Under the pieces are notes generated by a model. That model was not told the DNA's origin and did no database searches. It saw nothing but the letters and a program-made list of their open reading frames with translations. A DNA stretch of 64,000 nt from assembly GCF_003334315.1 (NCBI RefSeq), contig NZ_QOWR01000020.1. The stretch is one strand, 5' to 3'. Below, in pieces: positions 41,581-44,722 of the stretch (its first letter is position 1; the number at the start of each line of letters is the position of its first letter). The translations under genes were made by a program, and so were the position numbers. The DNA is from Escherichia coli (GTDB taxonomy: Bacteria > Pseudomonadota > Gammaproteobacteria > Enterobacterales > Enterobacteriaceae).

Positions 41581-43878
41581 ATGACGAATCGTATCTCTCG
41601 CCTCAAAACTGCACTGTTTGCCAATACCCGTGAAATCTCGCTGGAGCGGGCGCTGCTTTATACCGCCAGCCATCGGCAAACCGAAGGCGAACCGGTGATA
41701 TTGCGCCGGGCGAAAGCAACAGCGTATATCCTTGAACATGTTGAAATTTCGATTCGTGATGAAGAACTGATTGCCGGTAACCGCACCGTAAAACCGCGCG
41801 CCGGGATTATGTCGCCGGAAATGGACCCTTACTGGCTGCTGAAAGAGCTGGATCAATTCCCGACGCGTCCGCAGGACCGCTTTGCTATCAGCGAAGAAGA
41901 TAAACGTATCTACCGTGAAGAGTTGTTCCCGTACTGGGAAAAACGTTCGATGAAAGATTTCATCAACGGGCAGATGACAGATGAAGTAAAAGCCGCGACC
42001 AACACGCAGATTTTCAGCATCAACCAGACGGATAAAGGCCAGGGGCACATTATTATTGATTACCCACGCCTGTTGAATCACGGGCTGGGTGAGCTGGTGG
42101 CACAGATGCAGCAACATTGTCAGCAACAGCCGGAGAATCACTTTTATCAGGCCGCGTTGTTACTGCTGGAAGCCTCGCAGAAACACATTTTGCGTTACGC
42201 CGAACTGGCGGAAACGATGGCGGCAAACTGCACAGATGCCCAGCGTCGCGAAGAGCTGCTGACTATTGCAGAGATCTCCCGCCATAACGCGCAACATAAG
42301 CCGCAGACGTTCTGGCAGGCGTGCCAGTTATTCTGGTACATGAACATCATTCTGCAATACGAATCCAACGCCAGTTCGCTATCGTTGGGGCGCTTCGACC
42401 AGTATATGTTGCCGTTCTATCAGACATCATTAACCCAGGGCGAAGATGCGGCGTTCCTGAAAGAACTGCTCGAATCTTTATGGGTGAAATGCAACGACAT
42501 CGTGCTGTTGCGCTCCACCAGTAGCGCGCGTTATTTCGCCGGTTTCCCGACCGGCTATACCGCACTGCTCGGCGGGTTAACCGAGAACGGACGTAGCGCG
42601 GTGAACGTGCTTTCGTTCCTTTGCCTTGACGCCTATCAAAGCGTGCAATTACCGCAACCGAACCTCGGCGTGCGCACTAACGCCTTGATCGACACGCCGT
42701 TCCTGATGAAAACCGCCGAAACCATTCGCTTCGGCACCGGTATTCCGCAAATCTTTAACGATGAAGTGGTGGTGCCAGCGTTCCTCAACCGTGGCGTTTC
42801 GCTGGAAGATGCGCGCGACTATTCCGTAGTGGGCTGTGTGGAATTATCTATTCCCGGCAGAACCTACGGCTTGCATGACATCGCGATGTTTAATCTGCTG
42901 AAAGTGATGGAAATCTGCCTGCATGAAAATGAAGGCAATGCTGCGCTGACTTATGAAGGTTTACTGGAGCAGATCCGCGCCAAGATCAGCCACTACATCA
43001 CCCTGATGGTTGAGGGCAGCAATATTTGTGATATCGGCCATCGCGACTGGGCACCTGTACCGCTGCTCTCATCGTTTATCAGCGATTGTCTGGAAAAAGG
43101 CCGCGATATTACCGATGGCGGCGCGCGTTATAACTTCTCCGGCGTACAGGGGATCGGTATCGCCAACCTGAGCGATTCTCTCCATGCGTTGAAAGGGATG
43201 GTTTTTGAGCAACAGCGTTTAAGTTTTGACGAATTGCTGTCGGTATTAAAAGCCAACTTCGCAACGCCAGAAGGCGAAAAAGTCCGCGCTCGCTTAATTA
43301 ACCGCTTCGAGAAATACGGTAACGATATCGACGAGGTGGATAACATCAGCGCCGAACTGTTGCGCCACTACTGCAAAGAAGTGGAAAAATACCAGAACCC
43401 GCGCGGCGGCTACTTCACGCCGGGATCGTATACCGTTTCTGCTCACGTCCCGTTGGGATCGGTGGTTGGCGCGACGCCAGACGGTCGTTTTGCCGGAGAA
43501 CAGCTGGCAGACGGCGGCTTGTCACCCATGCTGGGCCAGGACGCACAAGGGCCAACAGCGGTACTGAAGTCAGTCAGTAAGCTCGATAACACGCTGCTGT
43601 CTAACGGTACGTTGCTGAACGTGAAATTCACTCCGGCGACCCTGGAAGGTGAAGCAGGATTACGCAAACTGGCCGACTTCTTACGGGCGTTTACCCAGCT
43701 TAAGTTACAACATATTCAGTTTAACGTGGTGAACGCCGACACGTTGCGGGAAGCGCAACAGCGCCCACAAGATTATGCCGGGCTGGTGGTGCGCGTTGCC
43801 GGATACAGCGCCTTCTTTGTCGAACTGTCGAAGGAGATCCAGGATGACATCATCCGCCGGACAGCGCATCAGCTGTAA
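41581..43878 (+). CDS. pflD: Glycyl-radical enzyme, PFL-like, substrate unknown (765 aa)
   Basis: Pyruvate formate-lyase fold; C-terminal glycyl-radical motif VVRVAGYSAFF. Confidence 0.95.
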   Translation: MTNRISRLKTALFANTREISLERALLYTASHRQTEGEPVILRRAKATAYILEHVEISIRDEELIAGNRTVKPRAGIMSPEMDPYWLLKELDQFPTRPQDRFAISEEDKRIYREELFPYWEKRSMKDFINGQMTDEVKAATNTQIFSINQTDKGQGHIIIDYPRLLNHGLGELVAQMQQHCQQQPENHFYQAALLLLEASQKHILRYAELAETMAANCTDAQRREELLTIAEISRHNAQHKPQTFWQACQLFWYMNIILQYESNASSLSLGRFDQYMLPFYQTSLTQGEDAAFLKELLESLWVKCNDIVLLRSTSSARYFAGFPTGYTALLGGLTENGRSAVNVLSFLCLDAYQSVQLPQPNLGVRTNALIDTPFLMKTAETIRFGTGIPQIFNDEVVVPAFLNRGVSLEDARDYSVVGCVELSIPGRTYGLHDIAMFNLLKVMEICLHENEGNAALTYEGLLEQIRAKISHYITLMVEGSNICDIGHRDWAPVPLLSSFISDCLEKGRDITDGGARYNFSGVQGIGIANLSDSLHALKGMVFEQQRLSFDELLSVLKANFATPEGEKVRARLINRFEKYGNDIDEVDNISAELLRHYCKEVEKYQNPRGGYFTPGSYTVSAHVPLGSVVGATPDGRFAGEQLADGGLSPMLGQDAQGPTAVLKSVSKLDNTLLSNGTLLNVKFTPATLEGEAGLRKLADFLRAFTQLKLQHIQFNVVNADTLREAQQRPQDYAGLVVRVAGYSAFFVELSKEIQDDIIRRTAHQL

Positions 43879-44722
43879 CGTTGTGGAAACGCGCCGCGAT
43901 GATGTGGCGCGCATTTTCAACATTCAGCGTTATTCACTGAATGACGGCGAGGGCATTCGTACGGTGGTCTTTTTTAAAGGCTGTCCGCATCTTTGCCCGT
44001 GGTGTGCTAATCCGGAGTCGATCTCCGGCAAAATCCAGACGGTACGCAGAGAGGCGAAATGTCTGCACTGTGCGAAATGTTTGCGTGATGCGGATGAATG
44101 CCCCTCCGGGGCGTTTGAACGGATTGGTCGCGATATCAGCCTTGACGCTCTGGAACGGGAAGTGATGAAAGATGACATTTTCTTTCGCACGTCCGGCGGC
44201 GGCGTCACGCTTTCTGGCGGCGAAGTGTTAATGCAGGCGGAGTTTGCTACCCGTTTTTTACAGCGACTGCGGCTGTGGGGTGTGTCATGCGCCATTGAAA
44301 CTGCCGGAGACGCACCAGCCAGCAAGCTATTACCGCTGGCGAAATTGTGCGATGAAGTGTTGTTCGATTTAAAAATTATGGACGCGACTCAGGCGCGGGA
44401 TGTGGTGAAGATGAACCTGCCACGCGTGCTGGAGAATCTGCGTTTGCTGGTGAGTGAGGGCGTCAACGTGATCCCGCGTTTACCGCTGATCCCTGGTTTC
44501 ACGCTCAGCCGGGAGAATATGCAGCAGGCGCTGGATGTACTGATCCCGCTGAATATCAGGCAGATCCATCTGTTACCGTTTCATCAGTACGGCGAACCGA
44601 AATACCGCCTGCTGGGGAAAACATGGTCGATGAAAGAGGTGCCTGCGCCGTCGTCAGCTGATGTGGCAACGATGCGCGAAATGGCAGAACGGGCCGGACT
44701 TCAGGTTACCGTGGGAGGTTAA
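43844..44722 (+). CDS. pflC: Glycyl-radical enzyme activating enzyme, radical SAM (292 aa)
   Basis: Start trimmed to MTSSAGQRISCNVVETRRDD; CxxxCxxC radical-SAM motif (CPHLCPWC) plus a second Cys cluster; 35-bp overlap with the pflD 3' end. Confidence 0.92.
   Translation: MTSSAGQRISCNVVETRRDDVARIFNIQRYSLNDGEGIRTVVFFKGCPHLCPWCANPESISGKIQTVRREAKCLHCAKCLRDADECPSGAFERIGRDISLDALEREVMKDDIFFRTSGGGVTLSGGEVLMQAEFATRFLQRLRLWGVSCAIETAGDAPASKLLPLAKLCDEVLFDLKIMDATQARDVVKMNLPRVLENLRLLVSEGVNVIPRLPLIPGFTLSRENMQQALDVLIPLNIRQIHLLPFHQYGEPKYRLLGKTWSMKEVPAPSSADVATMREMAERAGLQVTVGG

Follow-up and report, generated by a model that had tools for sequence, protein, structure and literature searches.

What does a glycyl-radical enzyme do inside an operon for a fructose-like phosphotransferase system (PTS)? 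This question is raised by the pflD-pflC gene pair, which lies among the frw genes in a cluster region of approximately 9.5 kb, within a 64-kb stretch of Escherichia coli DNA that was analysed as a whole (referred to here as the window, whose positions serve as coordinates throughout). A first-pass annotation of the window had proposed that the coupling of a PTS with a glycyl-radical enzyme indicated an anaerobic route for a phosphorylated compound of the sugar or sugar-alcohol type, a logic that proved right and that matches the relevant passage of a review (PMC12441222). The same annotation had stated that the substrate was not established, and had considered this the most function-poor system of the window. 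Both statements are outdated: the passage in question gives 1,5-anhydromannitol-6-phosphate as the substrate of PflD, whose function is thus published, and an identical protein is found in the PDB (8yjo).

We conclude that the locus very probably encodes the branch of the published 'anhydroglycolysis' pathway that handles 1,5-anhydromannitol. The main finding is not new, the function of PflD and PflC having been published in 2024 and the structure being available in the PDB. What may be new in the analysis is the operator predicted for YijO, the AraC-family regulator encoded downstream of the frw and pfl genes.

The reaction catalysed by PflD

The assignment of PflD starts from an identity. 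Chain A of PDB entry 8yjo, named 'Probable dehydratase PflD', is 100% identical to the PflD of the window over residues 1-765. According to the review passage on the work of Ma et al. (JACS 2024 146:26187), 'a PTS' phosphorylates 1,5-anhydroglucitol and 1,5-anhydromannitol at position 6, after which PflD converts 1,5-anhydromannitol-6-phosphate into 1-deoxyfructose-6-phosphate, and YbiW converts 1,5-anhydroglucitol-6-phosphate into the same compound, both reactions being glycyl-radical dependent (PMC12441222). The dehydratase names chosen by the PDB depositors, which include 'Probable dehydratase YbiW' for entries 8yjn and 8id7, agree with the assignment of PflD.

The protein itself displays the features of the glycyl radical enzyme superfamily: a pyruvate formate-lyase (PFL)-like barrel (PF02901, residues 1-626, E 2.6e-210), a C-terminal radical domain (PF01228, residues 645-747, E 1.2e-30), an RVxG[FWY] loop, a thiyl cysteine, and an adjacent activase. 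The glycine loop RVAGYSA, already placed near the C-terminus of this 765-aa protein by the first-pass annotation, spans residues 738-744 and contains the radical site Gly741, while Cys419 is the thiyl site and Glu421 the base. These three residues, plus His156 and Asp433, are invariant in 81 PflD sequences. PflD scores 1356 bits against TIGR01774 'PFL2-3' (cutoff 678.2), the model of the PFL2/glycerol-dehydratase subfamily, which places it in the eliminase/dehydratase clade. After 8yjo, its next PDB matches are a 61%-identical homolog (8id0) and the B12-independent glycerol dehydratase 1r8w.

The databases normally give this protein another name. Both RefSeq and NCBIfam NF007437, which is typed as an equivalog, call it 'formate C-acetyltransferase' despite the 2024 assignment and the PDB name, and all but one of the named homologs listed by a protein search carry either this label or 'pyruvate formate-lyase'. 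If these names were followed, PflD would be a redundant pyruvate formate-lyase and PflC a spare activase for it, and the PFL-like and Gly_radical Pfam domains are indeed common to both kinds of enzyme. However, PflD shares only 24% identity with PflB; it has a single cysteine followed by a glutamate (GCVE) where PflB has the Cys418-Cys419 pair (ACCVS); and it fails TIGR01255, the pyruvate formate-lyase equivalog, with 121.9 bits against a cutoff of 994.2. Taken together, these three observations argue that PflD is not a pyruvate formate-lyase, and the depositors of its structure call it a dehydratase. In addition, a study from 2016, when the function of PflD was still open, found that PflB binds FocA, whereas no FocA pull-down was obtained with His-PflD (PMC5600444), and the annotation of the pflD locus contains no focA gene. 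A redundant pyruvate formate-lyase, which the first-pass annotation had set against its own proposal, is excluded by the sequence together with the lack of FocA binding; we give it a vanishingly small probability and consider it effectively refuted already. The label 'formate C-acetyltransferase' on PflD is a misnomer.

Among the matches to PflD listed by a word-indexed protein search there were only Enterobacterales, at 89% identity or more, and in a library of representatives clustered at 50% identity, values above 47% were reached only by fragments, the nearest full-length representative standing at 47%. The contigs of two near representatives were short or uninformative for gene context.

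Linkage of pflD to the PTS and to the downstream enzymes

The genes of the cluster and the evidence for their identity are as follows:

35518-36621, minus strand: gldA, glycerol / L-1,2-propanediol dehydrogenase (annotation of the identical record)
36632-37294, minus strand: fsaB, fructose-6-phosphate aldolase 2 (NCBIfam TIGR00875, 348.6 bits)
37306-39807, minus strand: ptsA, fused HPr, Enzyme I (EI) and fructose-type Enzyme IIA (EIIA(Fru)) (Pfam and NCBIfam)
40116-41195, plus strand: frwC, fructose-family PTS Enzyme IIC (EIIC) permease, 359 aa (NF007787, 720 bits; TIGR01427, 300 bits, cutoff 157.55)
41210-41530, plus strand: frwB, fructose-family Enzyme IIB (EIIB), 106 aa, with the loop VTACPSGVAHT (TIGR00829, 137.7 bits, cutoff 76.85)
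41581-43878, plus strand: pflD, eliminase-clade glycyl-radical enzyme, 765 aa (identity to PDB 8yjo; PF02901, PF01228 and TIGR01774)
43844-44722, plus strand: pflC, radical S-adenosylmethionine (SAM) activase of PflD, 292 aa (TIGR02494, 262 bits, cutoff 174.35; alignment with YbiY and PflA)
44724-45065, plus strand: frwD, second fructose-family EIIB, 113 aa (NF007747, 224 bits; TIGR00829, 85.7 bits, cutoff 76.85)
45052-45903, minus strand: yijO, AraC-family regulator (Pfam HTH_18 / HTH_AraC, residues 179-270)

In order to follow this arrangement across species, one genome per species was scanned, which gave 199 species with a PflD relative, and the proteins of the window were searched by tblastn in the best 80 pflD loci, all of them from Gammaproteobacteria (Enterobacterales, Orbales, Pasteurellales, and Vibrio). 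Linkage was counted in the 68 of these 80 loci in which pflD is flanked on either side by at least 6 kb of sequence. The regulator gene yijO is present in 68/68 loci, pflC in 67/68, and ptsA, frwC, frwB, and frwD in 63/68 each, followed by fsaB (57/68) and gldA (37/68); eptC, an unrelated neighbour used as a control, appears in 19/68. The linkage of the gene set survives where the gene order has been rearranged, as in Gilliamella, Necropsobacter, Zophobihabitans, and Vibrio.

The PTS encoded here is a complete and private one, formed by PtsA, FrwB or FrwD, and FrwC. All five phosphorelay modules are present, with FrwC as EIIC, FrwB and FrwD as EIIB, and PtsA contributing HPr, EI and EIIA through its Pfam domains PTS-HPr (residues 7-84), PEP-utiliser (123-653), and PTS_EIIA_2 (690-829). 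The active-site cysteine of the EIIB proteins is kept, and the FrwB loop that contains it is invariant in 74/74 orthologs. The Frw models provide the family only, and the gene context points to 1,5-anhydromannitol, not necessarily fructose, as the substrate.

These counts bear on the proposal that PflD would be a glycerol or 1,2-diol dehydratase, acting on an unphosphorylated polyol together with GldA, with the PTS genes as unrelated neighbours. The closest characterised sequences outside the PflD group are 1r8w (653.6 bits) and 5i2a (600.4 bits), the catalytic Cys, Glu, His, and Asp are common to PflD and 1r8w, and gldA is located nearby. Yet it is the PTS that accompanies pflD in 63/68 species, including the rearranged loci, with gldA in only 37/68, and the substrate given by the review passage is a phosphorylated cyclic ether (PMC12441222). 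Furthermore, the histidine of glycerol dehydratase (His281 in 1r8w), located in the segment ESNGHS that is also found in YbiW, is replaced in PflD by Ser265, which belongs to the segment ESNASS (residues 261-268), is invariant in 81 sequences, and is shared by 8id0. We regard a diol dehydratase as very improbable. From these alignments, Ser265 is a candidate specificity residue that could possibly distinguish manno from gluco substrates.

The genes ptsA, fsaB, and gldA form one operon, with gldA as the last gene; gldA, fsaA, and fsaB were reported to be upregulated upon a shift to anaerobic conditions; and PtsA was assigned to a putative PTS through which fructose would be used anaerobically (PMC6643234). 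FsaB is 70% identical to FsaA, and in K-12 fsaA lies beside ybiW-ybiY just as fsaB lies beside pflD-pflC. This identity, with each aldolase gene beside a radical-enzyme pair, indicates that the two loci are paralogous modules.

Organization of the locus in E. coli

The first-pass annotation had described frwC, frwB, pflD, pflC, and frwD as tightly packed on one strand, and this is indeed their arrangement on the plus strand, with spacings of +14 bp (frwC/frwB), +50 bp (frwB/pflD), -35 bp (pflD/pflC), and +1 bp (pflC/frwD). The genes ptsA, fsaB, and gldA lie upstream of frwC and diverge from it, while yijO lies downstream and is convergent, its 3' end overlapping that of frwD by 14 bp. The whole region is 100% identical to that of E. 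coli 13C1065T, a chicken isolate, whose RefSeq annotation agrees with our list of open reading frames (ORFs), and 5394/5426 complete E. coli genomes contain 80% or more of the 9.5-kb region. The family matches of the cluster ORFs have E values from 0 to 1e-63, and these genes are therefore not chance ORFs.

A GC-rich, terminator-like hairpin (CCCGCTCGCAAGGGCGGG, 41539-41556) in the 50-bp gap between frwB and pflD was considered as an attenuator, and this role was rejected, as its fold energy does not depart from that of shuffled sequences (z = -0.36). A search with Rfam returned no RNA family match between 35.5 and 46 kb. Elsewhere in the window, Rfam matches occur at 1059-1136, 6141-6182, 19871-19928, 24540-24592, 25572-25613, 55871-55980, and 60970-61159, and comprise naRNA4, two copies of ES036, a ClpQY promoter element, an L31 leader, OxyS, and a cobalamin riboswitch.

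The activase PflC and its start codon

PflC had been recognised from the start as a radical-SAM activase by its motif CPHLCPWC, which corresponds to residues 47-54 and provides the CX3CX2C cysteines Cys47, Cys51, and Cys54. Between this motif and the core, the protein carries a single insert with a second motif, CX2CX2CX6C, formed by Cys73, Cys76, Cys79, and Cys86 (window positions 44060-44101). In alignments, this four-cysteine insert is absent from PflA and longer in YbiY, which suggests that PflC would hold one auxiliary iron-sulfur cluster rather than two.

The 35-bp overlap between pflD and pflC, with frwD starting right after pflC, stands as annotated and depends on the use of the ATG at 43844, which is preceded by an AAGGAG Shine-Dalgarno sequence 7 nt upstream (window 43831-43883). 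Both elements fall within the KEIQDD codons of pflD, and both are kept in 80/80 related loci; since they are built from codons that are invariant in any case, this conservation is uninformative on whether the start is used. An alternative in-frame GTG at 43883 would replace the overlap with a gap of 4 nt, and neither YbiY nor PflA has a counterpart to residues 1-22 of the annotated PflC.

The sole locus of the 68 in which pflC was not detected is that of Trabulsiella odontotermitis (L043, approximately 12300-13050), where the gap between pflD and frwD is shorter than a full pflC. This may represent a deletion or a pseudogene.

The divergent promoter region and the regulator YijO

The intergenic region between ptsA and frwC was aligned across 18 genera, and motifs were counted in 71 regions, corresponding to the window plus 70 species loci, from Enterobacterales to Vibrio. 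The alignment shows sharp conserved blocks amid diverged sequence, and the following elements can be distinguished in the window:

39870-39902, minus strand: ptsA-side bipartite direct-repeat motif, ATTACATTTGTCCAG-N-TTTGTCAC, candidate operator (71/71 intergenic regions)
39917-39932, no strand assigned: CRP-like site, TGCGACGCGTCTCACA, between the divergent promoters (one mismatch to TGTGA-N6-TCACA)
39981-39991: conserved non-coding block, GATCGCATTTT, about 20 nt upstream of the frwC-side motif
40002-40038, plus strand: frwC-side bipartite motif, TTACAAAAGTCCAGTAAATGGCCTTTTTATCCACTGT, candidate operator (71/71 regions)
40059-40064: -10-like TATTGT, after the frwC-side motif (71/71 regions)

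The bipartite motif can be written approximately as TTACAwwwnTCCAG, about 14 nt, and then TTTnTC. Each strand carries it once, oriented alike with respect to ptsA and to frwC, and both copies are present in all 71 regions. Each copy consists of a direct repeat of approximately TTTnTCCA, spaced by 20-21 bp and located beside the -35 position, at a median distance of 97 nt before the ptsA ATG and 112 nt before the frwC ATG. As judged from the sequence, this geometry is typical of sites for AraC-family activators. A 22-nt core pattern matches the 64-kb window exactly twice, against 0.02 matches expected, a comparison that is circular, as the pattern was derived from these very sites. Genomes carrying only pflD-pflC-yijO, without the PTS, have the motif 108-124 nt upstream of pflD, which indicates that it tracks the radical-enzyme operon and yijO, and not the PTS. 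At the ybiW locus, no copy was found with 3 mismatches allowed.

Between the two motif copies lies the CRP-like site, TGCGA-N6-TCACA, whose TCACA half hardly varies among the 18 genera; with up to 2 mismatches allowed, such a site exists in all 71 regions. A scan of positions 39808-40115 for the sigma-70 consensus found no promoter, a result that fits activator-dependent promoters. The block GATCGCATTTT fits the repeat poorly, and could be either a third half-site or the site of another factor.

A candidate to bind these repeats is YijO, which is listed as an uncharacterised AraC-family regulator (PMC4797297, PMC9308461). Its DNA-binding domain was assigned by Pfam to residues 179-270 (HTH_18 / HTH_AraC), with the N-terminal domain lacking a Pfam match; the predicted structure (predicted local distance difference test, pLDDT, of 85.4) consists of a beta-rich N-terminal domain and an AraC DNA-binding domain; and a Foldseek search with this model retrieved the full-length AraC-family proteins CsvR, Rns, and ToxT (E ~1e-8). 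Candidate sites with the expected direct-repeat geometry are present in 71/71 regions and co-occur with yijO. We predict that YijO would be the dedicated activator of the pathway, binding the tandem repeats at the divergent ptsA and frwC promoters around the CRP-like site, and sensing 1,5-anhydromannitol or its 6-phosphate, a proposal whose chances we see as evenly balanced. We infer that the pathway would be regulated by YijO plus CRP.

A more speculative extension of this prediction concerns FrwD, the second EIIB, which might report the phosphorylation state of the PTS to YijO rather than duplicate FrwB. The idea arises because FrwD evolves faster than FrwB (median identity across species of 74% and 92%, respectively), always keeps its cysteine, and stays beside yijO. 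FrwD is 43% identical to FrwB and retains the cysteine loop in 71/71 orthologs, and of the 63 loci with frwD as well as yijO, 57 have the two genes side by side; they also stay together in the rearranged loci of Gilliamella, Necropsobacter, and Vibrio.

The proposed pathway and its weak points

In the anhydromannitol branch as we propose it, the phosphate of phosphoenolpyruvate (PEP) would pass through the EI, HPr, and EIIA domains of PtsA to the EIIB protein FrwB, and possibly to FrwD, so that FrwC could import the anhydro-sugar and release its 6-phosphate. Under anoxic conditions, PflC would generate the Gly741 radical on PflD, from where it would move to Cys419. By analogy with the mechanism of glycyl-radical 1,2-eliminases, and in view of the conserved residues, the thiyl radical would take the C2 hydrogen, with Glu421 acting as the base, and the adjacent C1-O5 ring bond would be eliminated; the return of the hydrogen would then yield open-chain 1-deoxyfructose-6-phosphate. 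FsaB would cleave this product into glyceraldehyde-3-phosphate and hydroxyacetone, and GldA would reduce the latter to 1,2-propanediol. In the work of Ma et al., either FsaA or FsaB reportedly splits the product in this way, and GldA is reported to give 1,2-propanediol.

Several points weigh against this reading, and they concern the evidence for several steps as well as the gene context. The substrate assignment of PflD rests on a secondary review and on the names of PDB entries, and the FsaB and GldA steps are proposals supported by gene linkage. The role of Frw as the PTS for 1,5-anhydromannitol comes from our analysis, the review naming only 'a PTS' in the passage concerned (PMC12441222). 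With regard to the genes, the cluster lacks an adjacent fsaB in Klebsiella, Raoultella, and Yersinia, and 5/68 full-flank loci have pflD-pflC-yijO with no Frw PTS nearby. No FNR-like site with up to 2 mismatches was found within positions 39808-40115, even though the pathway would be anaerobic.

The minimal loci deserve a closer look. The set pflD-pflC-yijO, without a nearby Frw PTS, fsaB, or gldA, is found around position 10000 of loci L036, L037, L038, L045, and L056 (Kluyvera and a related gut isolate), and L083 (Edwardsiella piscicida). In Kluyvera and in Edwardsiella piscicida, this set sits among unrelated genes. At the Kluyvera pflD locus, a replacement transporter or kinase was sought and none was found, the neighbours being unrelated (hyp genes, a pectin acetylesterase, and haem uptake); the small ORFs following pflC in Kluyvera look spurious.

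These loci lend some weight to the alternative that PflD does act on 1,5-anhydromannitol-6-phosphate, but that Frw would carry fructose or another ketose, the anhydro-sugar entering through a general (mannose or glucose) PTS. The family models also place Frw in the fructose PTS family, PtsA was placed in a putative anaerobic fructose PTS (PMC6643234), and the wording 'a PTS' of the review passage (PMC12441222) would suit any such transporter. Against it stands the company that frwC, frwB, frwD, and ptsA each keep with pflD in 63/68 species through several rearrangements, together with the promoter region shared by frwC and pflD, which bears the motif that directly precedes pflD in genomes without the PTS. 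The chemistry would also suit a Frw transporter for the anhydro-sugar: owing to the C2 symmetry of D-mannitol, 1,5-anhydro-D-mannitol is identical to 2,6-anhydro-D-mannitol, that is, fructopyranose without the anomeric OH, and it is thus plausible that a fructose-family PTS phosphorylating the exocyclic CH2OH would accept it. We consider import through another PTS unlikely, and retain Frw as the probable transporter of the anhydromannitol branch.

Significance

The label 'formate C-acetyltransferase' on PflD misleads readers, among them the author of the first-pass annotation. Beyond this correction, the comparative analysis provides a testable prediction, with operator coordinates, for YijO, one of the few AraC-family regulators that are still uncharacterised in E. 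coli, and draws attention to the second EIIB, FrwD. As 1,5-anhydroglucitol serves as a clinical marker and causes the neutropenia of two inherited diseases (PMC12441222), the regulation of anhydro-sugar breakdown by gut bacteria would also be of some applied interest.

Comparison with known systems

One of the systems considered here is PflB/PflA, which shares with PflD/PflC the glycyl-radical fold, the RV(A/S)GY loop, and a radical-SAM activase of the CX3CX2C type. However, PflB, at 24% identity, uses a Cys-Cys pair, performs C-C cleavage with CoA, and binds FocA, all of them features that set it apart from PflD, and PflA lacks the four-cysteine insert of PflC.

The B12-independent glycerol dehydratase of Clostridium butyricum (1r8w, 653.6 bits), like related glycyl-radical diol dehydratases, shares the 1,2-elimination apparatus of PflD. 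Its GCVE loop aligns with that of PflD, and its Cys433, Glu435, His164, and Asp447 correspond to Cys419, Glu421, His156, and Asp433 of PflD, where the glycyl radical is at Gly741. Whereas PflD would act on a phosphorylated six-carbon compound and eliminate the ether oxygen of its ring, 1r8w eliminates water from a small free polyol. It has His281 in place of Ser265 and no PTS context.

YbiW/YbiY belongs to the same enzyme clade. YbiW is 39% identical to PflD, has the GC(V/I)E loop and RVAGYSA, and its locus likewise has an adjacent activase and an fsa paralog (fsaA) beside the pair. Its substrate, according to the review passage, is the C2 epimer of that of PflD (PMC12441222); as the same ketone results from either C2 epimer, both enzymes share the product 1-deoxyfructose-6-phosphate. 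The differences lie in the surroundings, as the ybiW locus has neither PTS genes, nor an AraC regulator, nor the conserved motif, and in the proteins themselves, with YbiW retaining ESNGHS where PflD has ESNASS, and YbiY carrying a longer cysteine-rich insert than PflC.

Finally, the locus of the window differs from that of DH5alpha, to which it is 99.2% identical at the DNA level, in coming from a different E. coli lineage, with the enzyme unchanged. Its gene order is that of K-12, and its PflD is the same protein as that of the E. coli PflD/PflC system of Ma et al. 2024 (PDB 8yjo), with 100% identity over 765 residues.

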